NCBI GenBank assembly: GCA_039715015.1
Contig: JBDLIE010000005.1
Location: forward strand, 44,460 to 108,459
DNA from: Thermodesulfobacteriota bacterium
Lineage (GTDB): Bacteria > Desulfobacterota > Desulfobulbia > Desulfobulbales > SURF-16
Length of the DNA: 64,000 bases
Direction: 5' to 3'
The notes beneath the pieces were generated by a model that did no database searches, was not told where the DNA came from, and saw nothing but the letters and a program-made list of their open reading frames with translations. Both the position numbers and the translations under genes were made by a program. Shown here piece by piece: positions 1 through 19,008 of the stretch (position 1 is its first letter; every line of letters starts with the position of its first letter).

Positions 1-1009
1 TGAGCTGACCGTCCATCAGATACTCATCTGGAGCAGGCTTAGTACGATCCTGGCAGTCCTCAGCAAAGATGGCCTTGGTCCTGGAGGTAACGACAACGTA
101 CTTGTCATCCGGGGTGAACATGGCGTCATGGGTCTCTTCCAGAGGAGGCATGGTCTCGGCATCAATGGTTTCCAAGGTGTTGGCATCAATAAGGAACATG
201 ATGTCACCGGTGGCATTGGCAATCATGGAAGAATCGTTTGACCAGTACTGCCTAAAAGAAATAGTCTTCTTCTTGTTGCCGTCAGCAACGCCAGAGGCAA
301 GGAGCTTTACTTTGCCTTTTTCAAGGGCTTTGGCATCGAGCATTTTCAGGTGCAGTTTGCCGACACCGGTGCCGTAGCTGGCAAGAGAGGAGGAATCACT
401 CTCGTTAATTGTGATGAGCATCTTGCTCATGTCTGGAGAGGTGGTGCCGTGAAAGTATTTATAGGGTACTTTGGGGTCAGCCTCAGAGCCTTCCAGGAAA
501 ACACGATGTTTGATCTTGAGATCTTTTTTGGTAAATACATCGATGTAGGCAGGGTTTGACATGGTGATGGGCATGAAATAATCTTTGGTCTGCCCTGATG
601 CGCAGTACATCTTCTTGGTAACCTTGACTTGCTTCGGGGTGGGAACATTAACGTCCATGATAACCTCACCGGTGCGCAGATCTGTTTTGCCAACGTGGGT
701 TTTGCCAGTGGCTGGGTCAAGTTTATAGGTAGACCAATACATGGTGTTACGGTCTTTATAATCGATACGGGCATCGTGGACTGGATGGGACTCGCCATCA
801 CCAATATCAATTTTAGTAAGCTCATTACAGGTAATGGGGGACTCTTTAGCTGGGTCTATGGTACAAACGGCCTTGGCAAAATGGCCACCCATGGCTGCTA
901 CATAAAAAGTAGCTTCGTAGGTTTTGCCTGCCATGGCGCCAGTTGCAATTCCTGCAGTGAGAGCAGTAGCGGTTACAGTGCTCAGCAATGCCTTTTTGGA
1001 AATCTTCAT
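1..1009 (-). CDS. Secreted beta-propeller protein with repeated His motifs (YncE/NosZ/TcDH-like fold); 3' end lies outside the window
   Basis: Not in the ORF track because it has no stop in the window. My translation is open for 336 codons from ATG 1009, with RBS GAGGAG at 1015-1020: MKISKKALLSTVTATALTAGIATGAMA|GKTYEATFYVAAMGGHFA...HPVHDARID...YFHGTTSPDMSKMLIT...THDAMFTPDDKYVVVT. Sec-type signal peptide and SPD/TPD propeller-blade motifs. Confidence 0.85.
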   Translation of the reverse strand, partial: MKISKKALLSTVTATALTAGIATGAMAGKTYEATFYVAAMGGHFAKAVCTIDPAKESPITCNELTKIDIGDGESHPVHDARIDYKDRNTMYWSTYKLDPATGKTHVGKTDLRTGEVIMDVNVPTPKQVKVTKKMYCASGQTKDYFMPITMSNPAYIDVFTKKDLKIKHRVFLEGSEADPKVPYKYFHGTTSPDMSKMLITINESDSSSLASYGTGVGKLHLKMLDAKALEKGKVKLLASGVADGNKKKTISFRQYWSNDSSMIANATGDIMFLIDANTLETIDAETMPPLEETHDAMFTPDDKYVVVTSRTKAIFAEDCQDRTKPAPDEYLMDGQL

Positions 1010-1195
1010 TTTTTCTCCTCGCTTGAGTGTTGTCGCGATCTCTGTTGCAATCGCATTAACATTTGGATTCTGGAACAATGTGTCACTGGTAAAGGGATCA
1101 GAGAAGCCCTGTAGCAGCAGGTTTTACGCTCTCTTTTAGACCTCTTTGGTTTTTCTCCAGTTACAGGAAAATCATGTTGCCAGAAAAAATACTTT

Positions 1196-1234
1196 GTGTG
1201 ACAATCTGTCCCTAGTGTGACAAATTGTCACACT
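1196..1234. promoter_or_regulatory. Tandem RegA/PrrA-type binding boxes in the divergent promoter
   Basis: GTGTGACAATCTGTCCC (1196-1212), then the perfect palindrome AGTGTGACAA-A-TTGTCACACT (1214-1234). Related boxes at 8291, 8900, 8918 and 18220. Confidence 0.7.
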
Positions 1235-1365
1235 GGAAGGTTCCGAAAATAAATGATTGCGAAAAATTTGCAACAAGAAAAAAGAGAAAAACCCTCCCTT
1301 TTCTTGTTTAAAGTTGATTCCTGTTAACGGGGTTATGATCAGTGGCAGGGGCTGGGAAAATAAAA

Positions 1366-2046
1366 ATGTATATCGAATGTGAAAACCTGAACAAAAAATA
1401 CAAGTCTGAAGGGGCTGTTTTAACAGCAGTTGATCAAGTCAATCTTCAGGTGAACAAAGGGGAGTTCGTCGTCATCTTGGGTCATTCCGGTTCTGGAAAG
1501 ACGACGCTTCTATCATTAATTGGCGGATTAACCAAGCCCGATGGCGGCACGGTTAGAATCGACAATATTGATAATTGGCAGCAGGCTGATGATGAGCTTG
1601 CTGTGATGCGCAATAAGAAGATCGGCTTTATTTTTCAATTTGCCAGTCTTATCCCCACCCTGACTGTTCTCGAGAATATTCTTTTACCTCTTTCCTTCAC
1701 AAGCGACCCGCAAGGGGACAGGCAATATGCATTGGACCTTCTGGAGAGAGTCGGCCTCAGTGGCCGGCAGGATGATCTTCCCGGCCAATTGTCAGGCGGC
1801 CAGCAACGCCGTGTCGCCATTGCCCGTTCTTTTATAAATCGCCCAGATATTATTTTAGCAGACGAACCCACAGGTGATCTGGATGAAGAGACTGAGAAAG
1901 AAATTCTTGCCATTTTTAAGGATTTTAATAAACAGGGGATCACTTTTCTTGTTGTAAGCCATAATAAAGATCTGGCTCTCAGTCAGGACAGACCGCGTAT
2001 GTTAACCATGAAAAACGGCTCTTTAGCTGAGACTTCTTCTCCATGA
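1366..2046 (+). CDS. ABC transporter ATP-binding protein (LolD/MacB family)
   Basis: Walker A GHSGSGKT, signature LSGGQQRRVAIAR, ILADEPTGDLD. ATG 1366 preferred over GTG 1342. Confidence 0.9.
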   Translation: MYIECENLNKKYKSEGAVLTAVDQVNLQVNKGEFVVILGHSGSGKTTLLSLIGGLTKPDGGTVRIDNIDNWQQADDELAVMRNKKIGFIFQFASLIPTLTVLENILLPLSFTSDPQGDRQYALDLLERVGLSGRQDDLPGQLSGGQQRRVAIARSFINRPDIILADEPTGDLDEETEKEILAIFKDFNKQGITFLVVSHNKDLALSQDRPRMLTMKNGSLAETSSP

Positions 2047-2537
2047 AAAAACTTTTTTTATTGTGCACCCTGTTGCTATGTTTAGCCGCTTGCGGGCAGT
2101 CCCAACAGGCTCCAGAGCTGCAGGTCGGTGGACCAGCTCCTGGATTTTCCGGCCTTGATATTTCAGGTAATTCCTTTGACCTGGCTGATTTTTCTGGAAA
2201 GCCGGTTATTATTCGTTTTTGGTCAACTGAGTGTAATTACTGCCGGGCAGACACCCCTGTTTTTAATAAGTTGTACGCGAAATATCACGACAAGGGCCTA
2301 CAAATTGCTTATATTAATACATTGTCAAGTTTGCCCCAGGTTAAAGAGTTTGTTGCTGATCTTGCTATTACATTCCCTGTCCTCATGGACGAGGATGGAA
2401 CCATGGCGCGTAGCTACCAGGTGAAGCTTGTTCCCCAAACAATAATTATCGATAAAAAACACAACATTGCTGCTGCTATTCTTGGCGGTGTCAGTGAAAA
2501 GGAAGTTATGGATTTGCTTCAGGAGGATTTGAAATAA
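2043..2537 (+). CDS. TlpA/ResA-like thiol-disulfide oxidoreductase lipoprotein
   Basis: Lipobox LAAC; FWSTECNYC CxxC motif; cis-Pro loop LVPQT; ATGA-coupled to the upstream gene. Confidence 0.85.
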   Translation: MKKLFLLCTLLLCLAACGQSQQAPELQVGGPAPGFSGLDISGNSFDLADFSGKPVIIRFWSTECNYCRADTPVFNKLYAKYHDKGLQIAYINTLSSLPQVKEFVADLAITFPVLMDEDGTMARSYQVKLVPQTIIIDKKHNIAAAILGGVSEKEVMDLLQEDLK

Positions 2538-2538
2538 A

Positions 2539-3042
2539 ATGAGAACTTTGAAAAACATCTTTGTGGTCCTGTGTCTTGCTTTCTTGGCCTCTTCTGCTGT
2601 TGCCGTTGCCGAACCATTAGAAAATATTGCCGATGATAGCCGTTGCAATGTCTGTGGTATGTTTGTTGCCAAGTATCCCAATTGGCTCACCCAGGTTCAT
2701 AGAGCCGATGGACAGGTTTCCCTTTTTGACGGGGTCAAGGATATGATGGTCTTTTATTTCAACCCAGAGAAATATGGTGCCAAGGCAGACACTTTAAAGG
2801 ATATTTGGGTAAAAGATTATTACACCATGAATTGGCTTGATGGCCGTAAAGCCCTCTACGTTGTTGGTAGTGATGTTCATGGCCCCATGGGCCACGAATT
2901 CATCCCCTTTGCCAGTCATGAAGCAGCGGCATCTTTCTTAAAAGATCATTCTGGTAAAGCCATCCTTGCCTTTGATGATATTACCTCTGAAAAGGTGGAA
3001 TCCATGCGCATGGGTATGAAGATGAAAATGAAGATGAAATAG
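2539..3042 (+). CDS. nosL: NosL-family copper chaperone with Met-rich tail
   Basis: Signal peptide; CNVCGM, FDGVKDM and GSDVHGPMG motifs; C-terminus MRMGMKMKMKMK. Confidence 0.85.
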   Translation: MRTLKNIFVVLCLAFLASSAVAVAEPLENIADDSRCNVCGMFVAKYPNWLTQVHRADGQVSLFDGVKDMMVFYFNPEKYGAKADTLKDIWVKDYYTMNWLDGRKALYVVGSDVHGPMGHEFIPFASHEAAASFLKDHSGKAILAFDDITSEKVESMRMGMKMKMKMK

Positions 3043-3068
3043 AGTGCAGCCATCATCTCCATCTTCCT

Positions 3069-3353
3069 GTGCTCTTAATGCGTCCATCCTCCCTTTTTTT
3101 CTTTGTTCTTTTCGCCCTGGCCGTTACTACTGTAACGCTAGCGGCCCATGGCCGTCATCGTGCCCTTAAGGAGAAGGACGCATATTTTGTGCGCGATAGC
3201 CTGACCAGAGAACTTGGTTTAACCGACCTATGTCTGGCCACCGAAGCTCGTTACACCAGACATCCTGCCCTGAGTGATGATCTTGCCCCTTTTATGGATT
3301 ATCCAGCAGCCCTGGAGCATTTTCCCTCAGGTCTCTTCTGGGCGCCCAAATGA
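3069..3353 (+). CDS. Small membrane-anchored hypothetical protein of the NosL-ABC operon
   Basis: N-terminal hydrophobic helix; LTDLCLATEARYTRHP segment; ATGA overlap with the permease. Confidence 0.7.
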   Translation: MLLMRPSSLFFFVLFALAVTTVTLAAHGRHRALKEKDAYFVRDSLTRELGLTDLCLATEARYTRHPALSDDLAPFMDYPAALEHFPSGLFWAPK

Positions 3354-4531
3354 AAGAATTCCTTGAAAAACAGACCAATATTCTTGATTATGCCCTGGCT
3401 TCGCTCTGGCGCCGGAAGGGGAAGAATCTTAGTGTTTTTTGTGTCTTTACCCTGGTTATCTTTCTCTTAGCCTCTTTCCAGTTTTTAACACGATCTCTGT
3501 TGGTGTCTGCTGCTGATACTTTGCAGCAGACACCCGAAATCACCGTCCAACGCATGGTTGCCGGTCGTCAGGAAACAATCCCTGTTGCCTATGGTGAAAA
3601 GATTAAAGCAATCTTCGGGGTGACTAGGGTCAGTGAAAGAGTGTGGGGCTATAAATTTAACGAAGTAACCGGCGCCAACCTTACTGTGATGGCTCTTGCC
3701 GACTTTTCCAAAGACAATCAGGCTGCTCTTGCTGAGGGGCGTTTTTTGGTTCAGGGAGATGCTGGCCAGGCCCTTATTGGTCAAGGGGTTTTAAAAGATC
3801 TGGGTTTGGGGAAACGGCGCAGCTTTTCTTTTTTTAGACCAGATCTCACCCTGAAATCGTTTTCAGTCAGCGGTATTTTTGCTCCTGCAACCGATATACT
3901 GACCTATGATTTGGTTGTCATGAATATCGGCGATGGCCGTGATCTTTTCGGACTCCAGCCTGATGTGGCCACTGATCTTCTTGTCGAAGTTGGAAACCCT
4001 GTGGAGATTGATACCATTGCTAAGAAAATCTCAACGATCTTGCCAGATACCAGAGTGGTTACCCGTCCGCAGATTTTAATGACATACCAGGCTGTTTTTA
4101 GCTGGCGTTCAGGTTTTGCTTCAGTGTGTCTGTTAACAGCTCTTGCTGCCTTTATTATCTTGGCCTGGGACAAGGCCTCCGGCATGTCGCCTGAAGAACG
4201 GCGGGAAATTTCTATTCTGAAAATCCTTGGTTGGCAGACCCCTGATGTTTTAGCAGTTCGGTTCTGGGAAAGTTTTGCCATGGCACTGGTTGCCTTTGTC
4301 TCTGGTAATATTCTGGCCTATATCCATATTGGTTATTTCCATGCAGCCCTTTTTCGTTCGGTGATGATGGGTTGGTCTGTGCTCCGTCCCACTCTTGATA
4401 TTGTTCCGGCTGTATATTCTACGGACCTTTTCTTGCTCTTTTCTCTCTCCGTGCTTCCTTATTTGGCAGCCACGGTAATCCCTGCCTGGCGCTGTGCCTC
4501 AGTTGCCACTGATTCTGCGCTGAGGGGGTAA
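3350..4531 (+). CDS. ABC transporter permease (FtsX/MacB/LolE family)
   Basis: One N-terminal TM, a periplasmic domain, then three TMs with ERREISILKILGW. Confidence 0.9.
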   Translation: MKEFLEKQTNILDYALASLWRRKGKNLSVFCVFTLVIFLLASFQFLTRSLLVSAADTLQQTPEITVQRMVAGRQETIPVAYGEKIKAIFGVTRVSERVWGYKFNEVTGANLTVMALADFSKDNQAALAEGRFLVQGDAGQALIGQGVLKDLGLGKRRSFSFFRPDLTLKSFSVSGIFAPATDILTYDLVVMNIGDGRDLFGLQPDVATDLLVEVGNPVEIDTIAKKISTILPDTRVVTRPQILMTYQAVFSWRSGFASVCLLTALAAFIILAWDKASGMSPEERREISILKILGWQTPDVLAVRFWESFAMALVAFVSGNILAYIHIGYFHAALFRSVMMGWSVLRPTLDIVPAVYSTDLFLLFSLSVLPYLAATVIPAWRCASVATDSALRG

Positions 4532-4535
4532 GTTC

Positions 4536-5219
4536 ATGATTGTTGAGCTCGAGGATATTGTTAAGATTTATAACCAGGGTGAGGCTAATGAAGTAACGGC
4601 CCTTGAGCAGGTTGATCTCACCATTGAGCATGGCTCCATGGTCTGTCTCAAGGGGCCCAGTGGCTCGGGGAAATCGACACTGCTTTCCATTATTGGCTGT
4701 ATTTATCCGCCTACCAGCGGCAGGGCCGTTATAGGCGGCAAGCAGTTGTCACGTCTGCCAGATCGTTTTTTGACCATCCACCGCCGGCAGACCATCGGCT
4801 TTATCTTTCAACAATTCAATATTTTGCCGAAGCTTTCTGTTTTTGAGAATATTGTTCTGCCTCTTCTGCCTTTGGGGGTCTCTCCTGCAAAGCGAAGAGC
4901 CATGGCTGAACCTCTGCTTGAACGTTTTGCCATTAAGCATCGTCAGAATTTTCCTGCCGGCTCTATTTCTGGCGGTGAACTGCAAAGAGTCGCAATTGCC
5001 AGGGCCTTAATTAATAATCCGCCTATCATCATTGCCGATGAACCCACAGCACATCTTGATAGCAACCTTACCAGGGGTTTTCTGCAAACAATGATGGAGC
5101 TGAAGGAGGAGGGGAAAACCATCATTATTGCCTCCCACGACCCGCTTGTCACCGAAGATGCCAGAGTGGACAAGATGTTTAATGTTCTGGATGGCAGGGT
5201 GAGCCAGGATGTTTCTTAA
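4536..5219 (+). CDS. ABC transporter ATP-binding protein (LolD/MacB family)
   Basis: GPSGSGKST, ISGGELQRVAIAR, IIADEPTAHLD. Confidence 0.9.
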   Translation: MIVELEDIVKIYNQGEANEVTALEQVDLTIEHGSMVCLKGPSGSGKSTLLSIIGCIYPPTSGRAVIGGKQLSRLPDRFLTIHRRQTIGFIFQQFNILPKLSVFENIVLPLLPLGVSPAKRRAMAEPLLERFAIKHRQNFPAGSISGGELQRVAIARALINNPPIIIADEPTAHLDSNLTRGFLQTMMELKEEGKTIIIASHDPLVTEDARVDKMFNVLDGRVSQDVS

Positions 5220-6219
5220 CCCATGGAGTCTAGCCCTGTGTCTGCTTAGCGGACTCAGTATCTTTTTGATTGGGGTGGCCTGTAAAACGGCGATCAGGGT
5301 CATCCGCCAGTGGAACCCGGCCGCTGATAGCCAACAACAGATTGAGCTTGAATCGGAGATTTGGCTGTCATCCACCCTGGTCCAGTATGGGCTTGGCTTT
5401 CAGATTATTTCCATGTTTCTCTACGTTCTGGCTGCAGATTCTTTTGCCCAGATGCTTTCCGGGGCCATGTGTGCCACCGGGTCTCTGCTGGCCAACGATT
5501 ATGGCATTCCGCTTCTTGTTGTCAAAATTGCCGGCATGTTCCTGTACGGCTTGTGGATTGTTCTTCATCAGCTCGATATCAGCAGTGAGGAGTATCCTTT
5601 AGTACGGGTTAAATATGTCCTCCTTCTTTTTTTGCTGCCGCTGCTTGTCAGTGACACAGTCCTGTTGATTCTCTACCTGGCTGGATTGGAACCAGATATC
5701 ATTACATCGTGCTGTGCAATTATTTTTGATGAAGGGGCCGGGGGCACGGTTCAGAATCTTTTCGGTGGACGGGGAGGGGAGGGGAGTTTGGCCTTTTATT
5801 ACGGCTGGGCGATGCTTCTTTTCTGTCTTGGTTTTCTTGCCTGGTGGTGGCAGAAATTGGCCGCTTATCTTATCTACGGGATTGGTGTTGCCTTTTTTGG
5901 TGTTCTGGCACTGGAGACTCTCATCACTGTATTTTCATCGTATATATACGCCATGCCCTTCCATAATTGCCCTTTTTGCATACTGAAGAAAGAGTATGGA
6001 TATATTGGTTTTTTTATCTACATCCCCCTCTTTGTTGCTGTTTTCTGTGGCATCACTCCCATGCTTCTTGAGCCGTGTAAAAGAAAGAGTTCCATTGCCA
6101 GTACAGTAGCAACCATGCAGAAAAAACTTGTGGTTGTCTCCCTGGCCTCTCTGGCATTTTATGTCACCCTCTCGTCCTATCATTATCTTGCCTATACCCT
6201 GTTGGGAGGGGAGGGGTAG
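5209..6219 (+). CDS. Polytopic membrane protein with Cys/His motifs, function unknown
   Basis: About 8 hydrophobic helices; GAMCATG, ITSCC and PFHNCPFC motifs; overlaps the upstream stop. Confidence 0.75.
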   Translation: MFLNPWSLALCLLSGLSIFLIGVACKTAIRVIRQWNPAADSQQQIELESEIWLSSTLVQYGLGFQIISMFLYVLAADSFAQMLSGAMCATGSLLANDYGIPLLVVKIAGMFLYGLWIVLHQLDISSEEYPLVRVKYVLLLFLLPLLVSDTVLLILYLAGLEPDIITSCCAIIFDEGAGGTVQNLFGGRGGEGSLAFYYGWAMLLFCLGFLAWWWQKLAAYLIYGIGVAFFGVLALETLITVFSSYIYAMPFHNCPFCILKKEYGYIGFFIYIPLFVAVFCGITPMLLEPCKRKSSIASTVATMQKKLVVVSLASLAFYVTLSSYHYLAYTLLGGEG

Positions 6220-6271: not shown

Positions 6272-6799
6272 TCAGAGGGTGGGGGGGAATTTTTGGAGTT
6301 TGCGCTGCAGGGTGCGGCGATGAATACCCAGCTTCTTAGCGGCCTGTGAAATATTATTGTTGCAGTCGCTTAAAACACGGCTGATATGCTCCCACTCAAC
6401 CCGGGCAAGGGATGGAGCACTGATGCTGTCATCTTCCATTTCACGGAGATCTTCCGATTCAAAGGCAGCTATAATATCTTCAACTTCAGCAGGTTTGGTG
6501 AGATAGCCGATTGCTCCAAGCTTAATCGCCTTGGTGGCTGTGGCAATGGAGCCATAACCCGTCAAAACTACGGCTCGTAGATCGGGGTGGTGCCGCATGC
6601 CAGTCCGGATGACGTCAAGTCCTGACTTCCCTTCCATCTTGAGATCCACAACGGCAAAGGCGGGCTTGTGTCGCGCAATGATCTCCACAGCCCCGATGTA
6701 GTTACTCGCAGTCTCTACGTCGAAGCCACGGCGCTCTAGGGCCTTGGATAAACGGTTCCGGAAAATATCCTCGTCATCAACAAGTAAAATGGTCGGCAT
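6272..6799 (-). CDS. regA: RegA/PrrA/ActR-family response regulator
   Basis: REC domain (LLVDD, VVDLKM, LTGYGSIATA, YLTKP) plus Fis-type HTH EWEHISRVLSDCNNNISQAAKKLGIHRRTLQRKL. Confidence 0.9.
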   Translation of the reverse strand: MPTILLVDDEDIFRNRLSKALERRGFDVETASNYIGAVEIIARHKPAFAVVDLKMEGKSGLDVIRTGMRHHPDLRAVVLTGYGSIATATKAIKLGAIGYLTKPAEVEDIIAAFESEDLREMEDDSISAPSLARVEWEHISRVLSDCNNNISQAAKKLGIHRRTLQRKLQKFPPTL

Positions 6800-6804
6800 G
6801 GTTC

Positions 6805-8160
6805 TTACACCTCCAAATCAGAGTCTGTTTGGGTGGCTAATGATTTGCTGAAAGAGATAGTTATAGTTGTTCCTGTGTCTTCATGGCTTTCAATATCGAG
6901 GGCCCCTTCGAGCTGGGTTGCCAACGATTTTGCCAGAAAAAGGCCAAGTCCCATACCCTTGCCAACAGGTTTTGTGGTGAAGAAAGGGTCTGTCGCCTGT
7001 TCAGCAACTTCTTGTGACATACCACAACCTTGATCAGTTACTATGAAATAAATGTACTCGCCATCCTCTTTACATTCAAGGGTGATTTCTCCGTCAGGCG
7101 GGCTTGCATCTGCTGCATTGGATAACAGGCCCTTTAATGACCAAGAGACAGCATGAGAGGGGACATGGAGTTGTTTGCTTGGAAGCATATTGTTTACAAC
7201 AAGGTTTTGAGAGATATTGCCAAGCAATTCTCGAGCGCTTTCGATGAGTTCATCAGTGGTACTGGGAGTATGTTTTTCCCCTTGGATAGCGCCGGCATCT
7301 GCAGACATTTGAAAGAGGATCTTTTTGCAACGGTTGGTTTGTTCCCGAATGAGCTGGGCGTCATCTAAGAGATCTTTGTCATAGATTTCATTCTCACAAT
7401 GATAGACCATTTCCCCTGATGCCAGACCAATGGTGGCGAGGGGGGTGGAGAGTTCATGGGCAGCCCCTGCAGCCAGGGTGGCAAGAGCGCTAAGCTTGTC
7501 GTTTTGCAGCTTTTCCTGGCGCAGCTTGGCAATGGTACGATGATAGTCCCTGAGGGATTGTTGGATGCGTGAAGCGAAAAAGGTGATCAAAACGGCACTA
7601 ACAGCATAGGCAAACCACATACCCTGTAGATGAAGATCCATATTAAAATTAGTGATATTGCAAACCTGCTGAACCTCCTGACTTGCCCCAGCTCCACTTT
7701 GTTTGAGAAGTGAGGGCAGAAACATGCCCCCATAAGAAAGAATTGTAGAGATGGAAAGGCCCCAGGCAAGAAGAGATGATAACAAGATGGCGCCAAGGGT
7801 GATATGGACCAGATAGATAAAGGTAAATGGGTTCATTGTGCCGCCAGTAATATAGAGCAACCCTGTGAGAAGGATTATGTCGCCATATAAAGTCAGAGGC
7901 AGAAGATATTCAGGTGGTGGCTTTTGGTGGCTGTGAAGACGAAGAGCAAGGGCGGTGTTGGTAATAATTTCAACAATAATTACAGTACTGACGGCAAAGA
8001 TAGGAAGGTCAAGATGGAAAAAGAATGAACCAATGGCAATGGTGAGAATCTGGCCAGCAACGGCCCACCATCGCAATTTGACTAACCAGTTAAGGCCAAT
8101 ACTCCGCGTATCATGGAGATTTTGTTGTGATTCTAAGCTGGTAAAAAGTGAGTGATGCAT
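6805..8160 (-). CDS. regB: RegB/PrrB/ActS-family redox sensor histidine kinase
   Basis: LRWWAVAGQ; quinone-binding motif GGTMNPF; H-box LAAGAAHELSTPLATI; redox Cys in RCKKIL; HATPase DQGCGM...PFFTTK...GMGLGLF. Confidence 0.9.
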   Translation of the reverse strand: MHHSLFTSLESQQNLHDTRSIGLNWLVKLRWWAVAGQILTIAIGSFFFHLDLPIFAVSTVIIVEIITNTALALRLHSHQKPPPEYLLPLTLYGDIILLTGLLYITGGTMNPFTFIYLVHITLGAILLSSLLAWGLSISTILSYGGMFLPSLLKQSGAGASQEVQQVCNITNFNMDLHLQGMWFAYAVSAVLITFFASRIQQSLRDYHRTIAKLRQEKLQNDKLSALATLAAGAAHELSTPLATIGLASGEMVYHCENEIYDKDLLDDAQLIREQTNRCKKILFQMSADAGAIQGEKHTPSTTDELIESARELLGNISQNLVVNNMLPSKQLHVPSHAVSWSLKGLLSNAADASPPDGEITLECKEDGEYIYFIVTDQGCGMSQEVAEQATDPFFTTKPVGKGMGLGLFLAKSLATQLEGALDIESHEDTGTTITISFSKSLATQTDSDLEV

Positions 8161-8290
8161 TTGGTGTTGATTTAATAATTAATAGAAAAAATGCTCTTAA
8201 TTAAAACACGTTAGCATATCAATTTTATGGCTGCTAGGTATTTGAAAAAAGGCTTTGGCATAGCTTGGTGAAAAGGGAAAAAACAGGCCT

Positions 8291-8332
8291 ATGCGACAAT
8301 TTGCCACATTTTTCCGGTCGGCAACTTGTGTT
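8291..8332 (+). repeat. Promoter segment with a RegA-type box, duplicated at 18220-18261
   Basis: ATGCGACAATTTGCCACATTTT...AACTTGTGTT occurs at both 8291 and 18220. Confidence 0.85.
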
Positions 8333-8418
8333 CATGTGAATCCTTTACATATTTCTGATGAGCGAACCCAAGTAAACATTGAATATTTACCCTTTTATCC
8401 TTCTGCTTGTTATGTTGA

Positions 8419-9032: not shown

Positions 9033-11129
9033 ATGATTCTGCGATGCAATGAACGTACTTTATTGCGCGCTGCCCTGGTTACCGGGACAGCGGCATTCTT
9101 TGTTTTGCCGCAACAGGTTTTTGCGGCTGAAGACCAGGTTGTCGAACTCAGTGACGTTGTTATCACGGCCTCCAGGATCAGTCAGCAGGTTAAGGATGCC
9201 CCGGTTGCCATCAGTATTGTTTCCGAACAGGAACTGGACAAAATAAAGGCCAGGAATCCGCAAGAGTTTCTTTCCAGGGTCCCAGGTGTCAACTCCAGTA
9301 ACTTTGGCGGTGAATCAGAGCTTACCTCCATCAGGATACCAACCCATTTCACCAATCCATATACCGTTGTGTTGGTTGATGGCGTGCAGTATGGCAGCTA
9401 TGGTTCCGGTAGCTCGAGCCAGTTTCGGGAGATTAACCTCAACAACATCGCACGTATCGAGGTGATCAAAGGGCCTGCCTCAGCTCTGTATGGCAGTAAC
9501 GCCATCGGCGGTGTCATTAACGTGATCACCAAGGAGCCTTCAGCTTTCCCCCAGGCCAGGATCTGGTCGGAACTGGGAGATTACAGGCAATGGCGGGCCG
9601 GCGTCTCCGGCAGTGGCGGATTTGATAAACTCAGCTATTTTATCGACGCCAATCACACCGATACGGAAGCTGCCCGGGAGCATAGTGGTGTTGATAAGCA
9701 GTCTGGCTCCGTGAAGTTGAACTATACCGCCACTGATGTGTCATTGCTGACCTTTAAAATAGACTATGTCACTGTCGAGAATGACTCCCCAGGCTCTATT
9801 AACCAGGATGATTTCGAAGAAGACTGGCTGCAGAGTTATCATAATTTTGCCTACAACAAGTCAGACAGGGTGGCACCTGCCCTCTCCTATGTCCATTATC
9901 TTGATGCTGCTGAGATGCGGGCAATTTTTGTCTTACGGGACACTGAGGAGGAAACCATACCTAACTACAGCATTCGCCAGCTGACCTTTGGCCCATTTCC
10001 ACGCCCCTATATTGGCAGTTATACAGAGGATGACAGTCTCGATATGAGCCTGCAGCTCTTATATAGTCACGACCTCTCCCTTTGGCGCAGCAAGGTAATT
10101 GTCGGCCTTGATACGGAGTATGGCAGCAAATATTCAAAGACCTATGACCTTTCGGTATCCTATGACAGCGCTCTCAACAAATATGAGAGCTATACCTTAG
10201 GGGACCTCGACAAGTCCTATGATATGACAACCAAGGTGGCAGCGCCATATCTGCAGCTCGAGAGTTCCCCTTGGAAAAAGCTGCGCATAACTGTCGGCGC
10301 CCGCTATGACTCGGCCCGGTATGAAGTTGAAGATCAATTGAGCAACAGCATTGAAAACAAGCGGGGGTTTGCCAAGACCAGCCCCAAAGCCGGTGTTACC
10401 TATGATATTAATGCCAACCTCAACACCTATGTCAGTTACTCAAAGGGCTTTGTTGTGCCCACCACTAGTCAGCTGTGGACCTCGCGCTATGACAACGCCG
10501 ATCTGGATCCTGAAAATGCCGAAAATTATGAGGTCGGTCTGCGCAGCAGCTTTATGAACAGACGTCTTAGGCTCGACATCTCTGTTTATGATATGACTAT
10601 CACAGATAAGATCGTTATCAACAACACCCCGGCGCCGAATACCCGCTACATAAATGCGGGTAAGAGCTCACAGAAAGGCATCGAGGTAATGACCTCTTAC
10701 GCGCCGCTGGAAAGCGTTCAGTTGAGTGTTGCCTACACATATGCCCGCAACAAGTATGAATCTTATAGTGATCAGGGTGTCGATTATAGCGGCAACTGGC
10801 AACCGCGCTCCCCTAAACATCACCTCAACGCCCGCCTGTCTGTATTCCCAGTCGACGGTGTAGAGGTCGAGCTGGAAATGGATGAGGTCAGCAGCCAGTT
10901 TGCTGACGACGCCAACCTTTTTGAGTACACCAGGCCTACCCTTTTTAACCTCCGCGCCTCATACTACTGGAAGCGCTTCACTTTCTGGGGCCATATCCTG
11001 AATCTTACCGATAAGGAGCATGCAAACTATATGAGCTATAGTACCTCGGAAGACACCATGACCCTCTTTCCTGGTATTGCCAGAACGGCATTTGTCGGCC
11101 TTTCCTATCGGTTCGGAGGAGACAAGTAG
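9033..11129 (+). CDS. TonB-dependent outer-membrane receptor
   Basis: Signal peptide; DVVITASR; plug motif IARIEVIKGPASALYGSNAIGGVINVITK; LDPENAENYEVG; C-terminal beta strand GLSYRF. Confidence 0.95.
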   Translation: MILRCNERTLLRAALVTGTAAFFVLPQQVFAAEDQVVELSDVVITASRISQQVKDAPVAISIVSEQELDKIKARNPQEFLSRVPGVNSSNFGGESELTSIRIPTHFTNPYTVVLVDGVQYGSYGSGSSSQFREINLNNIARIEVIKGPASALYGSNAIGGVINVITKEPSAFPQARIWSELGDYRQWRAGVSGSGGFDKLSYFIDANHTDTEAAREHSGVDKQSGSVKLNYTATDVSLLTFKIDYVTVENDSPGSINQDDFEEDWLQSYHNFAYNKSDRVAPALSYVHYLDAAEMRAIFVLRDTEEETIPNYSIRQLTFGPFPRPYIGSYTEDDSLDMSLQLLYSHDLSLWRSKVIVGLDTEYGSKYSKTYDLSVSYDSALNKYESYTLGDLDKSYDMTTKVAAPYLQLESSPWKKLRITVGARYDSARYEVEDQLSNSIENKRGFAKTSPKAGVTYDINANLNTYVSYSKGFVVPTTSQLWTSRYDNADLDPENAENYEVGLRSSFMNRRLRLDISVYDMTITDKIVINNTPAPNTRYINAGKSSQKGIEVMTSYAPLESVQLSVAYTYARNKYESYSDQGVDYSGNWQPRSPKHHLNARLSVFPVDGVEVELEMDEVSSQFADDANLFEYTRPTLFNLRASYYWKRFTFWGHILNLTDKEHANYMSYSTSEDTMTLFPGIARTAFVGLSYRFGGDK

Positions 11130-12181
11130 TGCCTTCTTTTTCAGGTGGTATACCGGGGCTTAAGGGCTCGGTCTGTTTTCTGACTTCAGTTATGCCGTTT
11201 CTTTTGCTGGGCGTTGCGACAGTGACTGAGGCGCAAGGGCTTCCCCCTTTGCGCCTCGCCCTTTCGCCCACTGCCCCTGTCGGTGAAGAATGCCTAGCGC
11301 ATGGTCAAGGCGGCCCTGCCAAGGGCGGCAAGGCTGTAGATGACCGGCGGCCGGTACTTGAGTCAGAGCATAGACCACTGCCTGTCCGCACCTACCACTT
11401 CAACGCTCATCGTCGCTTGGCCGATGTAAAGGCCTATGTCCGGCATCCCGATGGCACAGTAGATGTGCCTGAACTTCGCCTGGGGGCCAATCCGCAACTT
11501 ACTTTTAAAACACCCTTTGGCGATGGCCCCAATCATGGGGCACACAATGTCTATGTTGTCGAGCAGGGCGTTGAGGGAGATGTCCTGGTTGTCCGCACCG
11601 CAAAATGGATTGTCATGCACCATAGCTGCGGTTGGGGACATGATCAAAAATTTAATGAGCAGCTCACCCAACCTCAACCTCTTGAGTCCATTCCCATGGA
11701 AATTCTGATCTCAGACCTTTGGGACGGCAATTTCCACTTCCGGGTGACCACAGGTCAAAAACTTTCAATAACAGTGCTGCGGAATGGTCACCCCCTTGCC
11801 AAAGCCCGGGTAAGCGTGAGGAGTGAGCAAGGCTGGGTCAAAGAGGTAGATGCAGATAAAGATGGTGTCGCCACCTTTCAGCTGATCAGGGATTATTACC
11901 CCACCAGATGGCAGGAGTTTCACCGCACCCGGCGGGGCGAGTTTTTGGCCACGGCAACCTACGAGGCAGAGGAGCACGGCGAATATAAAGGGATACCGTA
12001 TGGGCGTGTGCGCTATATCACAACCCACCCCTGGACCTATGGCCCTTCAAGCTGGGACTATGCCTCCTATTCGATGGGTTTGCTGATCGCCGTCATTGCC
12101 ATGGCCCTTACCGGTGGCGGTGTATTTATCTATCGTGAACGGCGCAAAAAGCCTTATCAGGAGATTGTTTTTGAAGAGTAA
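11129..12181 (+). CDS. Exported His-rich protein with a DUF4198-like/prealbumin-like domain and C-terminal TM anchor
   Basis: Hydrophobic N-terminus; NHGAHN and MHHSCGWGH motifs; VLRNGHPLAKARV...ADKDGVATF; C-terminal TM followed by RERRKK. Confidence 0.65.
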   Translation: MPSFSGGIPGLKGSVCFLTSVMPFLLLGVATVTEAQGLPPLRLALSPTAPVGEECLAHGQGGPAKGGKAVDDRRPVLESEHRPLPVRTYHFNAHRRLADVKAYVRHPDGTVDVPELRLGANPQLTFKTPFGDGPNHGAHNVYVVEQGVEGDVLVVRTAKWIVMHHSCGWGHDQKFNEQLTQPQPLESIPMEILISDLWDGNFHFRVTTGQKLSITVLRNGHPLAKARVSVRSEQGWVKEVDADKDGVATFQLIRDYYPTRWQEFHRTRRGEFLATATYEAEEHGEYKGIPYGRVRYITTHPWTYGPSSWDYASYSMGLLIAVIAMALTGGGVFIYRERRKKPYQEIVFEE

Positions 12182-13160
12182 ACTGCAGACCGCCATCAAT
12201 AACTGTAATGTCAGCCGCTTTCGGTTTTACGTGCAGATCTTCAGCTTTGCACTCCTCGTTTATGGTGGATACCTGGCCATAAATATTGGCGACCAGTTGC
12301 CAACCTTTGCGTGTGTGTTCGATCAAATGAGGGGAGGGGCCTGCTACCTCATGGGCCTGCAGCATCAGATGACCACCCCCTTCAAGAGCTATTTCAGCGG
12401 CCGGGGCATTGGTATGCTGACTGGGCTGCTGACTTTTTTTCTCTTTTTTATCGCCCTCAACAAGGCCTGGTGCGGTTTTGTTTGCCCCCTTGGCACCCTT
12501 CAGGACTGGCTGAGCAGCCTGCGCCGTAAATTCGGGATCCGGTACGCAACGTACTCGGCACAGAATTTCAAGGGCCTCGGTACCATCAAGTATATCCTGC
12601 TGGCCCTGTTGATTCTTCTCCCCATGGCCATAGGCAACAGCTTTTTCGGCCTGCCCAAGCTCAATCATGATTTTGGCGTGCCGTTCTGCATGATTTGTCC
12701 GGGGAGAACCCTGCTCCCGGTTTTTCATGGTGATTTTTCGCAGTTCATCATCGATTTCAGTTCAAAGACCAAGATGGTCTTCACGGCCCTGGGTATGGCG
12801 GTGACAGGTATGTTATTGGCCGGCGCCTTTGCGAAGAAGCGGTTCTTCTGCCTCTTTTGCCCGATGAGCGCCTTTCACTATATCTTCCACAAGGCAGGCT
12901 TGCTGCGCCTTACCAAGGATGGCAGCAAGTGCACCCGTTGCGGAAACTGTTACCGGGCCTGTGATGTTGGTATCCATGCCATCGCCGATGACTTGACCCA
13001 TAAAAATATTATCAAGGATGATTGCATGATGTGCCTGAAATGCATTGAAGCATGCCCGGAGGAAGATTGCCTGAAGGCTTCTTTTTTTGCAATGCCGGTT
13101 TATGAGTCAAGCGCCCAAGGGTTTTTTAAAAGGATGCAGGGGAAATGTCATGGAAAATGA
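12171..13160 (+). CDS. Membrane 4Fe-4S protein (NapH/MauN-like)
   Basis: TM helices; WCGFVCPLG, CMICPG, FCLFCPM; two ferredoxin motifs CTRCGNCYRAC and CMMCLKCIEACP. TTG 12171 follows AGGAG. Confidence 0.85.
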   Translation: MKSKLQTAINNCNVSRFRFYVQIFSFALLVYGGYLAINIGDQLPTFACVFDQMRGGACYLMGLQHQMTTPFKSYFSGRGIGMLTGLLTFFLFFIALNKAWCGFVCPLGTLQDWLSSLRRKFGIRYATYSAQNFKGLGTIKYILLALLILLPMAIGNSFFGLPKLNHDFGVPFCMICPGRTLLPVFHGDFSQFIIDFSSKTKMVFTALGMAVTGMLLAGAFAKKRFFCLFCPMSAFHYIFHKAGLLRLTKDGSKCTRCGNCYRACDVGIHAIADDLTHKNIIKDDCMMCLKCIEACPEEDCLKASFFAMPVYESSAQGFFKRMQGKCHGK

Positions 13161-14463
13161 ACGACTAAGGCGAGTGCGGAAGACGACCCTTCTTCATTTG
13201 GCCATGGAGGCCAAGAACACCCTGCTGAAGATAGAAGAAGAGTTTCCCGATAACCCGGCGGCAATGGACTACTTCTACACGCTCTATAAGGATGTATTCA
13301 ACGACGAGCCGAAGCTGCCCACCGATAAGAAAATTATCGGGACGATGTGCGTCCAGGTCCCCCAAGAGCTTATACATGCTGTTGGGGCATTCCCCTTACG
13401 GTTATGCAATGGGGCTAGTGCCTATGATCAGGTAGGTGCCGAGTTTATGCCTGCCAAGTCCTGCCCTGTGGTGCGGGCGACAATGGGCATGCTTCATGTC
13501 GACCAGGCGCTGTGGGGGGAATCCCTGCAGGCCGTCGTCATCCCTACCACCTGCGACCAAAAGAAAAAATCATGCCAGATTCTTGCCGATATGGGCTACC
13601 CAGTCTATGCCCTGGACATGCCAGCGACCAAGGAGAGCGAGGCCTCTCGTTTTTATTGGCAGGAGTCGATAAAAAAATTCACCCTGGATATGCAAAAAAT
13701 AACCGGGGTGAAAATAACTGCAAAGCGTGTCCAGGCAGCCATAGCAAAAGTAGCCTCAGCATCATCCCTGTACCGGAAGTTGCAGGAATTGCGAAAATCT
13801 GATTATGCCCTGATTCTTGGCAAGGATATGTTTTTGGTCACCAATGCCTATTTTTTTGATGAAATTGATCGCTGGCAGCAGTCTGTCAGCCGGCTGGTCG
13901 CCGAATTGGAAGAACGTAAACGAAACGGCTTTAGCGCCGGCAAGCGCCAGGCCCCACGCATCCTTTTTACCGGTTCGCCACCAATATTTCCCAACCTCAA
14001 GGTTCCCATTCTGGTGGAACAGGCCGGCGGGGTTATCGTGGCAGATGAAACCTGCTCGTCGGGAAGACTTCTCTATGATTCCGTTGCCTTTGATGAAGCA
14101 ACTCTCAACGACATGATTCCCGCTCTTGCCGACCGCTCCCTGAAGCCCTGCACCTGCCCATGTCTCACCCCAAACAAGGACCGGCTGCGGAAGCTCATTA
14201 ACATGGCCAAAGAATTTGAGGCCGATGGCGTTGTCTATCAGGCTTTTTCTGGTTGCCTCCCCTATGAAATGGAGCAGAAGCAGGTTGCCAAGGCCCTGGC
14301 CGAAGCCGAAGTGCCGATGCTATATGTTGAAACCGACTATAGCCCTGAAGATATGGGGCAGCTTTCCACACGGATAGAGGCCTTTATCGAATCGATCCTG
14401 GCCCGGAGAAGAAAAAAGAAGGTTGCCCAGCTTCATCAGAAGGCAGGTGAGGAAGGCTCGTGA
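13150..14463 (+). CDS. 2-hydroxyacyl-CoA dehydratase-family protein, double-cubane cluster protein (DCCP)-like
   Basis: GTMC-x18-C-x18-C-x29-C (TTCDQKKK)-x166-C (DETC)...CTCPCLTPN...SGC; ETDYSPEDMGQLSTRIEAFIE. Confidence 0.8.
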   Translation: MENERLRRVRKTTLLHLAMEAKNTLLKIEEEFPDNPAAMDYFYTLYKDVFNDEPKLPTDKKIIGTMCVQVPQELIHAVGAFPLRLCNGASAYDQVGAEFMPAKSCPVVRATMGMLHVDQALWGESLQAVVIPTTCDQKKKSCQILADMGYPVYALDMPATKESEASRFYWQESIKKFTLDMQKITGVKITAKRVQAAIAKVASASSLYRKLQELRKSDYALILGKDMFLVTNAYFFDEIDRWQQSVSRLVAELEERKRNGFSAGKRQAPRILFTGSPPIFPNLKVPILVEQAGGVIVADETCSSGRLLYDSVAFDEATLNDMIPALADRSLKPCTCPCLTPNKDRLRKLINMAKEFEADGVVYQAFSGCLPYEMEQKQVAKALAEAEVPMLYVETDYSPEDMGQLSTRIEAFIESILARRRKKKVAQLHQKAGEEGS

Positions 14464-15275
14464 ACTACTTTGCAGGTATTGATATCGGTTCGACCTCGAT
14501 AAAGATTGTTCTGGCCGACGACAATGAACAGATTGTTGCCTCAGATGTCTGTCCGACTGGCAGTTTTTTTCATAAAAATACCATGACTGCCTTTGCTGGT
14601 TTATTGACCCAAAAAAATATCGATCGCCAGGAGGTGGTCTATATCATTTCCACCGGCTATGGCCGTAAGCTTTTCAAAGAGTCCGACGAGACTATCAGCG
14701 AGATCACTGCCAATGCCATTGGCGCCCGTAAAATCGGTGAGCGCTATGGCCAGACACGGACAATCATCAATATTGGCGGCCAGGACTTGAAGGTAATTCT
14801 TCTTGATGACGAGGGCCATGTTAAAAACTTTGCCATGAACGACAAGTGTGCGGCTGGTACCGGCCGCTTTCTGGAGATGACTGCCCGCAACCTGGAGGTT
14901 GAGGTTGATGAGCTTGGTGACTTTCATGAAAGGTGCGCCACTATTCCGTTAATCATTAACAGCACCTGTACTGTGTTTGCCGAGTCTGAGATTATCAGCC
15001 TGCTCGCCAACGGTCATGGCAAAGAAGAACTCATTACCGGCATTCACTATTCCGTTGCCAGAAGGGTAGCGCGTCTGGCAAAACGCCATGGCGTAGAGGA
15101 CATGGTCTTCTTTGATGGCGGGCCTGCCTTAAATCAGGGTCTTGTTAAGGCCCTGGAGGATGAGTTGATGCACCGGGTTGTTGTCCCCGACACTCCACAG
15201 ATTACCACCGCCTATGGTGCTGCCTTGTTGGCCAGGGACGCCTATCTCTGTGAAGACGAGGTGGTTAATGGCTGA
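14460..15275 (+). CDS. ATP-dependent [4Fe-4S] activator (BadF/BadG/BcrA/BcrD family; DCCP-reductase-like)
   Basis: GIDIGSTSIK, STGYGR, IGGQDLK, MNDKCAAGTGRFLE, STCTVFAESE. Confidence 0.9.
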   Translation: MNYFAGIDIGSTSIKIVLADDNEQIVASDVCPTGSFFHKNTMTAFAGLLTQKNIDRQEVVYIISTGYGRKLFKESDETISEITANAIGARKIGERYGQTRTIINIGGQDLKVILLDDEGHVKNFAMNDKCAAGTGRFLEMTARNLEVEVDELGDFHERCATIPLIINSTCTVFAESEIISLLANGHGKEELITGIHYSVARRVARLAKRHGVEDMVFFDGGPALNQGLVKALEDELMHRVVVPDTPQITTAYGAALLARDAYLCEDEVVNG

Positions 15276-15873
15276 ACTCTTCAGCTTTCTCGGCCTCGGT
15301 GTACTGTACGGCTGCACCATGTGTAGCTTTACCTGCCTGCCATACCTGGGCATCTATCTCATGGGTACTGGCCAGGGTTTTGGCGACGGGGTGCGGGCAT
15401 CGTTTTTTTTTCTGCTGGGAAAGGTTTGCACCTATACCTTGTTCGGGGCCTTGGCCGGGGCCTTGGGGATGGTCCTTGATTTGAGCGCCACCCAGGGCAA
15501 GGTATTGGGCCTTGTCTTGATAACGACCGGTATTTTCTTGCCCTTTGTGGCCAGGAAGCAATGCCAGGGGACTTGCCGGCAATCAGGGAAAAGACTCTCT
15601 CTCTTTTCCCTGGGCATGGCCACCAGTCTGTTACCATGCCCGCCCTTGGCTGCGGTTTTTCTTGTGGCTGCCCAAAAAGGCTCCTGGCTCCTGGGGGCAG
15701 GATACGGAGCGCTGTTCGGTCTGGGCCTTTTTGTGTCGCCGCTCCTGCTGGCTGGAGGAGGGCTGGCCCATATAACAAAGACAATCCAGTTTGAAGCAAA
15801 GGGATTCACCCCCTACCTGCAGGGTATTTCCATGTTGATAATAGTAGTGATTGGTCTGCGAGTTTTTATCTAA
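15268..15873 (+). CDS. DsbD_2/TauE-SafE/UreH-like membrane protein
   Basis: Six TMs; GCTMCSFTCLP and LLPCPPL Cys motifs; ATG 15268 after GAGG. Confidence 0.75.
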   Translation: MAELFSFLGLGVLYGCTMCSFTCLPYLGIYLMGTGQGFGDGVRASFFFLLGKVCTYTLFGALAGALGMVLDLSATQGKVLGLVLITTGIFLPFVARKQCQGTCRQSGKRLSLFSLGMATSLLPCPPLAAVFLVAAQKGSWLLGAGYGALFGLGLFVSPLLLAGGGLAHITKTIQFEAKGFTPYLQGISMLIIVVIGLRVFI

Positions 15874-15879
15874 GGGGGA

Positions 15880-16314
15880 ATGGCTATGGAATGGCTTAAG
15901 GATGTCATTGATTATGGAATAATTGGTTTCTTGCTGGTGATGAGTGTGGTTGCATGCGCCATCGCCATAGAAAGGTTCTTGGTTTTTCGTTCTATCAGGC
16001 TTGACGACTACCCCAACAAGCAGCTCTTGCAGATTGAGCTCACCAAAAAGCTGCATGTCATTGCGATCATCGGCAGCAATGCCCCCTATTTGGGTCTGCT
16101 TGGCACGGTCCTCGGTATTATGCTGACCTTCTATAATCTGGGCCGGGAAGGCTTTATGGATACCAGCGAGATAATGGTGGGTTTGGCCTTGGCCCTGAAG
16201 GTAACAGCTGTTGGCTTGGTCGTGGCGATTCCGGCCGTTTTTCTTTATAATATGCTGCTGCGCCAGGCAAAGGTGCTGATGTTGCAATGGGAGAGTACCC
16301 ATGGACGAGACTGA
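15880..16314 (+). CDS. exbB: TonB energizer ExbB
   Basis: IGSNAPYLGLLGTVLGIMLTF; LALKVTAVGLVVAIPA. Confidence 0.92.
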   Translation: MAMEWLKDVIDYGIIGFLLVMSVVACAIAIERFLVFRSIRLDDYPNKQLLQIELTKKLHVIAIIGSNAPYLGLLGTVLGIMLTFYNLGREGFMDTSEIMVGLALALKVTAVGLVVAIPAVFLYNMLLRQAKVLMLQWESTHGRD

Positions 16315-16681
16315 GTTCAATACCTTGAATGTGATCCCCCTCGTCGATGTGATGCTGGTCTTGCTGACCATTGTTTTGATGACATCGACTTTTATTGCGG
16401 TGGGCGGACTTTCCATTGAATTGCCGCAAGCCGCCGGGGAAAAAGTGGAAATGTTAAAGACGCTGACCATCGAAATAGATAGTGAGGGCACCATATTTCT
16501 TGAGGCCGCGGCAATATCACTTGCCGGGTTGACTGATTCCTTGGCCGGAACCGATAAGGAGACACCCCTAATCATCCGGGCCGACAAGAAATTGGCCTTA
16601 CAACATTTTGTTGAGGTGATGAGTGCGGCAAAGGCTTTGGGTTTCACCAAGGTAAGCCTGCAAACCGAGGTGACCTCATGA
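16301..16681 (+). CDS. exbD: ExbD
   Basis: LNVIPLVDVMLVLLTIVL; IRADK. Confidence 0.92.
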   Translation: MDETEFNTLNVIPLVDVMLVLLTIVLMTSTFIAVGGLSIELPQAAGEKVEMLKTLTIEIDSEGTIFLEAAAISLAGLTDSLAGTDKETPLIIRADKKLALQHFVEVMSAAKALGFTKVSLQTEVTS

Positions 16682-17412: not shown

Positions 17413-18219
17413 AACCGTTGATCCTTGCAGGTCTTCTTGCCTGTAATCCCATGGCAGGTAATGTAACTGCCTGCTGTTAATGGCTTTTTCCAAGACTCTC
17501 ATTTCATCGACTTAGATACAAATCCAAAGACCTGGCAGGTATCGGCTAGGTGCTTGGATTTTGTGGTACTTGAGCGAGAATCAAACTCGAACGGGCGCAA
17601 TGTCAAACCGCTTTGAAAATTAACCTCTCAACCGCGTCCAATTTTGCCCCCTTATTTTAAACAAAAGAGATCATTTTCTGTTTTTCAACCTCCAATTCTC
17701 CCTTGTGAAGAGTGTCATTGCAGGGCCAATCAGCAACCGGTTCTTTACGGAGCGTCAGGGGCTCAGTCGGGGTGATTCTTGCCAAGGCGGTTGGCTCCTA
17801 CTCTCTGGCAATGGTGCGGTGTCACTCGCTTAAGGATTGCTGAATGTGCGAGACGAAAAAGGTCGTTAAAATTGCACTTATGGCAGAAGCAAGCTCCATA
17901 CCCTATAGATGAAGGTCCATATTCAAGGTAGTAATAGTGCAAACCTGCTGGAAAAGAAATGAACCGATCTTGATCGTAAGAATTTGGCTGGCCACGGCCC
18001 ACCAACGTAATTTTAGCAGCCACAAGAGACCAATTCGCTTGGTGTTATGAGTATTTTGCTAAGGATTCAGTCTGCTTAGAAAAGTGGGATCCATTGTGTT
18101 TGGTTGAGGTGGAAGGGAAGGTGTCGACTGAATCAAAATCAGCACATCAACCTCAAGCCCGCCAACCACCTAAGGGACACTTTCTCAATATCTTTTGGCC
18201 AAAAGGATCAACGAGACTT

Positions 18220-18238
18220 ATGCGACAATTTGCCACAT
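18220..18238 (+). promoter_or_regulatory. RegA-type box upstream of torD-psrAB
   Basis: ATGCGACAATTTGCCACAT, an imperfect palindrome identical to 8291-8309. Confidence 0.65.
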
Positions 18239-18985: not shown

Positions 18986-19008
18986 GCGGGCTGTGAACAG
19001 GCCGCTTA
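18983..19008 (+). promoter_or_regulatory. Intercistronic hairpin between torD and psrA (possible RNA stability or attenuation element)
   Basis: TAAGCGG-gCTGTgaACAGg-CCGCTTA stem-loop. Confidence 0.4.

Follow-up and report, generated by a model that had tools for sequence, protein, structure and literature searches.

We analyzed a 64,000-nucleotide stretch, hereafter the window, of the Thermodesulfobacteriota bacterium assembly GCA_039715015.1 (contig JBDLIE010000005.1, here C5, positions 44,460 to 108,459), the left end of which carries most of a gene for an exported beta-propeller protein, facing away from an operon that includes a NosL-family copper chaperone. The explanation we favor, while granting it slightly less than an even chance, is that this protein acts in the periplasm as a redox enzyme, its six-bladed propeller bearing at the mouth a haem c and a soft-metal site, most likely copper. 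The copper, the catalysis and the substrate are what we infer from an export signal, a fold, conserved residues and gene partners that were each observed and are described below.

The window holds the first 336 of the gene's 382 codons (1..1009, minus strand, ATG at 1009), with a GAGGAG site 6 nt upstream of the ATG; the full open reading frame (ORF) spans C5:44320-45468, ends 139 nt left of the window and encodes 382 residues (P0001; L-, G- and P-numbers are our labels for relative loci, genomes and proteins, G000 being the source genome). Its N-terminus is a Sec-type leader without twin arginine, with a signal peptide of about residues 1-27. An earlier note on this DNA had proposed a Sec-exported propeller that the ORF track had missed, and the gene is real, running off the window from its minus-strand start. 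The same note had stated that the visible 336 residues contain no CxxCH, which is true, whereas the 46 residues outside the window hold C354-L-A-C357-H358 together with C374. Because these hidden residues contain an invariant CxxCH, the premise of a protein free of haem fails, and a haem-free Cu or Cu-S site is not supported, two more invariant cysteines accompanying the motif. Recovery of the 3' end also revealed an FtsX permease and an FmdE-family gene downstream.

An AlphaFold2 model built on 126 sequences supported the predicted propeller fold (pLDDT 93.3, pTM 0.89), with 24 strands forming six blades and a C-terminal strand that closes the ring. The closest structures in VIA are six-bladed, among them nidogen (Z 25.5, root-mean-square deviation (rmsd) 2.7, 257 residues aligned). 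The four histidine motifs highlighted previously are all present, and the 126-row alignment retains H43 (123/124), H78 (123/124), H187 (125/126) and H294 (123/123); the first histidine of HPVHDAR, H75, is found in only 14/29 rows of a diverse alignment, while H78 of the same motif is invariant. Conservation extends to C136 (125/126), M150 (125/126), R253 (124/126), R310 (123/123), C354 (123/123), C357 (122/122), H358 (122/122) and C374 (120/122), as well as to D79, D295 and position 40, which is Met or His in 115/124 rows. Four inner strands begin, in one register, with H78, C136, H294 and C374, and D79, H187, R253 and D295 are the residues that follow an inner-strand start; the blade-start residues are H78, C136, F186-H187, F252-R253, H294 and C374; the b-c turns hold H43, M150 and R310. 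Inner-strand starts and b-c turns of propellers face the channel mouth, and the conserved candidate ligands would accordingly lie on one channel-facing face, the placement used by metal-binding propellers, as judged from sequence register and DSSP. Seven paralogues (21-24% identity) keep H43, C136, H294, R310, the CxxCH and C374, and carry Cys and His at the starts of blades 4 and 5, where P0001 has Phe-His and Phe-Arg; such a Cys/His exchange is typical of metal ligands.

The CxxCH, of which the protein holds only one, sits in the model on one short helix (355-361) between blade 6 and the closing strand. Its spacer is two residues long in 187 motifs, three in one, four in three and six in one, and a histidine follows the second cysteine in every motif, whatever the spacer length. 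The source genome, which is 99.99% complete, encodes two cytochrome c assembly genes and 34 ORFs with three or more CxxCH. The propeller thus combines the motif, an export signal and a host with haem c assembly genes, as is expected of a c-type cytochrome, and haem is probably attached at this site.

In the mechanism we propose, the protein would be exported by Sec, after which the cytochrome c maturation system would attach haem to C354 and C357 with H358 as the proximal ligand, leaving the haem helix on the channel face, with blade 6 to one side and blade 1 to the other. TlpA would keep C136 and C374 reduced, Cu(I) would be supplied by NosL, or by PCuAC in other lineages, and an FtsX(Cys-Cys)/ATPase unit would use ATP to deliver metal (or sulfur) to the propeller, in the manner of NosFY with NosZ. 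One to three copper ions may then sit by the haem with H43/M40, H78, C136, M150, H187, H294 and C374 as ligands, R253 and R310 would bind an anionic substrate, electrons would move via periplasmic multihaem cytochromes, and expression would track redox state through RegBA. As to the substrate, a sulfur oxyanion or polysulfide is our tentative first choice, a nitrogen oxide or O2 comes a close second, and other compounds make up the remainder.

Although common, the family is without a Pfam or NCBIfam model or a solved relative, and the literature covered contained no paper on it. Of 4948 candidates, 851 were homologues, which reduce to 113 representatives at 50% identity, and profiles placed the propeller in 94/300 genomes of the order, Desulfobulbales (96 matches minus 2, weak matches in long ORFs of G420 and G500 having been dropped) and in 72/201 genomes of a second phylum (E<=0.001), which, in agreement with the Atlas, we take to be Nitrospirota; a metagenome scan gave one locus, and no holder was listed among RNA runs. 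P0001 matched no Pfam or NCBIfam family, including cytochrome c families of Pfam and nos_propeller (PF18764), Cytochrom_D1 was weakly matched by 4/29 members, and a PDB sequence search returned nothing with the single protein and only weak blade-level matches with family profiles. In some genomes several divergent copies coexist, a separate permease accompanying each one, and lipoprotein, tandemly duplicated and circularly permuted forms occur; lipoproteins that combine two CxxCH motifs with a pair of circularly permuted propellers are encoded at L015, L084, L107 and L108 (P0121, P0125, P0127). One sortase-linked locus suggests a Gram-positive carrier. Searches of the literature, on NosL together with beta-propellers in Desulfobulb- taxa, on sulfur disproportionation together with NosL and on disproportionation together with propellers in Desulfurivibrio among others, found nothing on the family within a coverage that left out subscription journals and supplements; proteomics tables of sulfur disproportionators may list genes of this cluster as hypothetical proteins.

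The constant partner of the propeller is an FtsX(Cys-Cys)/ATPase unit, not NosL. In the source genome an FtsX/MacB permease with vicinal Cys118-Cys119 lies co-oriented and downstream at C5:43050-44240, left of the window, as does the FmdE-family gene (C5:42103-42690), and a LolD/MacB-type ATP-binding cassette (ABC) ATPase (1342-2046, plus strand, start possibly ATG 1366) accompanies both the propeller and the Cys-Cys permease. To survey neighborhoods we fetched loci from long contigs only, a subset of the matches: 48 close ones from the order, among which two pairs share a contig, along with 18 strong ones from the second phylum, 15 of distant paralogues, 5 of duplicated forms and the one of G168. 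The permease is directly downstream of the propeller in 79/87 loci (45/48, 16/18, 15/15, 2/5 and 1/1, respectively), and Cys118-Cys119 is present in the periplasmic domain of 99% of 69 aligned permeases. A complex prediction for the propeller, two permease periplasmic domains and haem (score 0.02, mark 0.32) is evidence neither way. Multihaem cytochrome genes adjoin the cluster in L092, L097, L138, L140, L141, L143, L144 and L153, FtrD-like genes in L142 and L147, and sulfur-handling genes are sporadic neighbors (YeeE in L094, L136 and L140; rhodanese in L015 and L088; NrfD in L068; DsrE-like in L086 and L140).

Several further features of these neighborhoods were observed. Some loci hold two Cys-Cys FtsX permeases. 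A helix-turn-helix (HTH) protein of ~125 residues with a Cys-rich tail lies between the propeller and the ATPase in 7/51 loci (for example L010:9512-9904 and L097:11557-11934), and the same protein type occurs upstream of tlpA in propeller-free genomes. A second single-CxxCH lipoprotein of ~320 residues, without a Pfam family, stands beside distant paralogues (L101:12055-13002, L104:12662-13630).

The divergent operon described in the earlier note was confirmed in full. On the plus strand, the ABC ATPase is followed by a TlpA/ResA-like lipoprotein thiol-disulfide reductase with C64-x-x-C67 (2043-2537), the NosL-family Cu(I) chaperone (2539-3042; PF05573, E 1.5e-34, 119.6 bits against a cut-off of 24), a 94-residue small protein with an EARYTRHP motif (3069-3353), a second FtsX/MacB-type permease without the Cys-Cys motif (3350-4531), a second ABC ATPase (4536-5219) and an all-helical membrane protein with invariant M87-C88, C168-C169 and H252-x-C254 (5209-6219). 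Neither the small protein nor the Cys membrane protein matched a Pfam or NCBIfam family. The latter also occurs in Nitrospirota and Campylobacterota according to the Atlas; it gave no Foldseek match at E<=0.001 and showed a sub-threshold Atlas likeness to CcsA/CcmF (TM 0.35-0.38). In NosL, C36, C39, M41 and M117 are conserved in 58/58 rows, and C39, M41 and M117 match by motif the Cu(I) ligands Cys62, Met64 and Met145 given in PMC8457098, as befits a member of the NosL family. The lack of nosZ and nosD noted for the window extends to the whole genome, in which we found no nosZ, nosD, haem-copper oxidase subunit I or PCuAC (the nosD model PF05048 was positive in 6/14 control genomes), and NosL there has no nosZ, nosD or haem-copper oxidase as an alternative client. 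We rejected nosZ as the reason for NosL, inside or outside the window; it exceeded the cut-off in 5/300 genomes of the order. The genome does contain dsrA. A second NosL-domain protein (C17:12177-12500, 308 residues, with a MerB-like part) is unlinked to any copper enzyme seen.

The association of this operon with the propeller is uneven, and we rejected the idea of a dedicated NosL operon. Within the fetched regions NosL was found in 35/48 close, 6/18 second-phylum, 1/15 distant and 0/5 duplicated loci and in 1/1 for G168, and the Cys membrane protein in 35/48, 1/18, 0/15, 0/5 and 0/1, the full operon being adjacent in 1/18 second-phylum loci. In that phylum a PCuAC chaperone adjoins the propeller unit in at least 7/18 loci (20 chosen ORFs scanned), and NosL or PCuAC is present in 12/18; this replacement of NosL by PCuAC, an unrelated Cu(I) chaperone, strengthens the copper link. 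In other systems TlpA and PCuAC together build a Cys-ligated CuA (PMC7558416). Taking the Cys membrane protein as the marker of the NosL operon across 300 genomes, which as kin are not independent, we found it in 163, of which 88 have the propeller and 75 do not; 6 have the propeller only and 131 neither. A broader propeller profile found none in G420, G421, G425 and G466 and weak repeats only in G492, and in family f103 the tlpA-nosL-small-permease-ATPase-membrane block stands alone. Since the operon exists without the propeller in those 75 genomes, NosL has another job. There are thus two modules, the propeller-FtsX(Cys-Cys)-ATPase unit and a NosL block that is its near-constant companion in the order yet also occurs separately. 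In the f103 loci (L111-L124) the block often lies beside a ~1000-residue gene and a small HTH-Cys regulator. A paralogous small/permease/ATPase/membrane block (L114:4896-7239, L126:3766-6203) has upstream of it SCO1/SenC and a CxxCH periplasmic-binding-protein fusion.

The intergenic region between the propeller and the operon contains two RegA/RegR-type palindromes, TGTGAC-N5-GTC (1197..1232), and a RegA/RegB-like two-component system (6272..8160, minus strand), below NCBIfam cut-offs, is the likely regulator of this divergent promoter; regA/regB are adjacent also in L005-L009, L014, L074, L079, L080 and L082. The window holds 5 matches to the palindrome against 1.86 expected, and a degenerate box, its pattern drawn from the source genome, lies upstream of the propeller in 21/66 loci against 2.9 in shuffles, and in 0/18 second-phylum loci. 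It resembles RegA ChIP sites, including those at ccoN and cydA, listed in PMC5359404. A sigma-70 scan gave 4 sites against 4.7 expected. A RegA-type box also stands upstream of torD-psrAB (box 18221..18237, genes 18434-22137), and further boxes precede one HAO-like octahaem gene and two OTR-like genes, all below family cut-offs. Co-regulation of the propeller with psr, which the earlier note had suggested, is plausible as part of a general redox regulon given the common box; a conserved tie across genomes is what did not hold. We rejected Psr as a conserved partner of the propeller, on genome co-occurrence and on its adjacency in 6/51 loci, all of them close relatives. Sulfur chemistry is weakly supported because Psr does not co-occur with the propeller across genomes.

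Two side observations concern these promoters. The further boxes, at C6:4811, C8:51636, C8:51848 and C71:9375, outline a redox regulon. The regB/torD promoter is duplicated (8270-8350 and 18200-18280) on either side of a block (9033-17412) that encodes a TonB receptor, a NapH-like protein, a double-cubane reductase with its activator, a DsbD-like protein and ExbBD/TonB; in L005-L009 and L014 regB and torD stand without this block between them, pointing to an insertion that split a divergent promoter.

Several observations weigh against a haem c-copper redox enzyme. The top PDB matches are generic propellers at 8-15% identity with no catalytic homologue among them, and the scores of thiocyanate dehydrogenase (TcDH) and NosZ (Z 19.8-20.4, 9-15% identity) are level with Kelch, YncE and WD40 rows; because of this tie the fold names no family, and the structural comparison invited by the earlier note yielded good scores that generic propellers share. 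Convergence of the conserved side chains is read from register rather than measured. A single CxxCH that lies outside a cytochrome fold might coordinate metal rather than haem, and the genome encodes a CopA-type multicopper oxidase. FtrD-like and DUF4418 genes in four propeller loci suggest metal handling over catalysis, 14/15 distant-paralogue loci lack NosL in the fetched region, and the genomes with the NosL-operon marker and no propeller under the broad profile include single-contig ones. Finally, Psr showed no co-occurrence with the propeller across the 300 genomes (46 with both, 48 with the propeller only, 120 with Psr only and 86 with neither).

Some of these observations would suit a different role, to which we assign a real but minority likelihood: the propeller as the subunit with which the FtsX(Cys-Cys)/ATPase transporter binds or hands over metal in the periplasm, serving Fet-like metal acquisition or trafficking by capturing Cu or Fe and passing it to the permease cysteines, with any haem setting the redox state of the metal and no respiratory function. 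The near-universal downstream permease, unbroken among the distant paralogues, its almost invariant Cys-Cys pair and the multiple divergent copies with a permease each all favor such a subunit. The neighbors FtrD-like, DUF4418, TlpA, NosL and PCuAC likewise resemble Campylobacter fetABCDEF, which comprises an ABC transporter, a DUF2318/YHS protein and two thioredoxins and is needed under iron limitation (PMC10783030); FetMP-FetABCDEF shares with the propeller locus ABC permeases and an ATPase, periplasmic thioredoxins and a Cys-motif/YHS protein. However, Fet systems have no propeller, the propeller promoter carries a RegA-type redox box common to respiratory genes, and no Ftr1 or P19 was seen among the loci and ORFs inspected, for which no profile search was made. 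The two invariant arginines and the CxxCH suit a catalytic site, and the permease is absent beside the stand-alone copies L085, L141, L145 and L162.

It is improbable that the propeller is a multicopper or Cu-S enzyme free of haem, with C354, C357 and H358 serving as extra metal ligands or a disulfide. Four invariant cysteines, five histidines and a methionine could hold a Cu(I) cluster, the motif is not within a cytochrome c fold, and TlpA and copper chaperones adjoin; nevertheless, the invariant histidine after the second cysteine at all tolerated spacers, Sec export and the haem c assembly genes make haem the default. That the propeller belongs, as an outlying member, to the NosZ or TcDH families, performing N2O reduction or thiocyanate oxidation, is very hard to sustain: it shares their ligand register, with a weak TcDH profile match (E 0.08-0.18, one or two blades) and a NosZ hhalign match, but it has six blades and 382 residues, no CuA cupredoxin, nos_propeller match, NosD or Tat signal, and Cys and Arg where those enzymes carry His.

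The likeness to these two enzymes claimed in the earlier note therefore stands for conserved histidines in the ligand register and not for their seven-bladed type. Like NosZ with NosDFYL, the propeller has a blade-start histidine and a cluster with an ABC transporter and NosL; H294 aligned with NosZ His178, which we take to be a CuZ ligand, in an overall weak match (hhalign probability 22.9%, 75 columns, four NosZ sequences). Unlike NosZ, with its seven blades and seven CuZ histidines, it folds into six blades from 24 strands and ends at the closing strand, residue 382, without a CuA domain; nosD is lacking from the genome, the ABC units are of MacB/FtsX rather than NosFY type, and the NosL module is separable. 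Automatic Atlas names and weak matches point to cytochrome cd1, NirN, hydrazine synthase and the QHNDH beta subunit, which also pair a propeller with haem. Those proteins carry haem c in cytochrome domains apart from the propeller, which has 7-8 blades, unlike the present CxxCH inside the closing loop.

MccA/SirA, a sulfite reductase with haem c and copper, reportedly described by Hermann et al. in 2015, offers a precedent for haem c with adjacent copper acting on a sulfur oxyanion; MccA uses two-Cys copper ligation and has a NosL-like chaperone. It is an octahaem protein whose active-site motif is CX15CH and which has a lyase of its own (PMC6976685), and the propeller, with one CxxCH in place of eight haem motifs, lies outside that family. 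TcDH (EC 1.8.2.7; PDB 5F75, 8Q9X; Z 19.9-20.4, rmsd 3.6-4.4, 281-297 residues aligned, 13-15% identity in VIA) is likewise a propeller of the periplasm whose metal ligands sit where inner strands start, has a His-Asp...Arg(+16) arrangement, and has copper chaperone and thioredoxin-like genes nearby (PMC6504805). Its site, Lys103/His135/His136/His206/Asp314/His381/His437/His482/His528 in the same source (TcDH is also covered in PMC9456337), includes His528-Asp529...Arg544, a spacing equal to that of H294-D295...R310. TcDH differs in its seven blades, Tat export, three Cu and lack of haem, and the six-bladed propeller, Sec-type without twin arginine and with CxxCH and Cys/Met ring residues, mirrors only this His-Asp...Arg part. 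By analogy, the propeller may resemble NosZ and TcDH in where its ligands are placed and in the chaperone and ABC genes it requires, and MccA should haem and copper pair up, while belonging to none of them.

To our knowledge, no central role is expected for copper enzymes in sulfidic anaerobes that carry dsrAB, and the periplasmic chemistry of sulfur-oxidising and disproportionating sediment bacteria is largely unknown. The fullest form of the haem c-copper reading, which we regard as less likely than not, is a new respiratory enzyme class in which a six-bladed propeller with a single haem c and a His/Cys/Met-bound copper cluster at the channel mouth, loaded by a MacB-type ABC unit via vicinal cysteines, would carry out a periplasmic sulfur (or nitrogen-oxide) step in such bacteria. 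If the haem c-copper reading is true, the propeller would represent a third haem-copper architecture besides the oxidases and MccA, and a candidate for the missing periplasmic steps in sulfur oxidation or disproportionation; if it is instead a transporter subunit, a widespread Cys-Cys MacB-type transporter would gain a defined periplasmic client. Either reading would explain why NosL and PCuAC are encoded in genomes that have neither nosZ nor oxidases.

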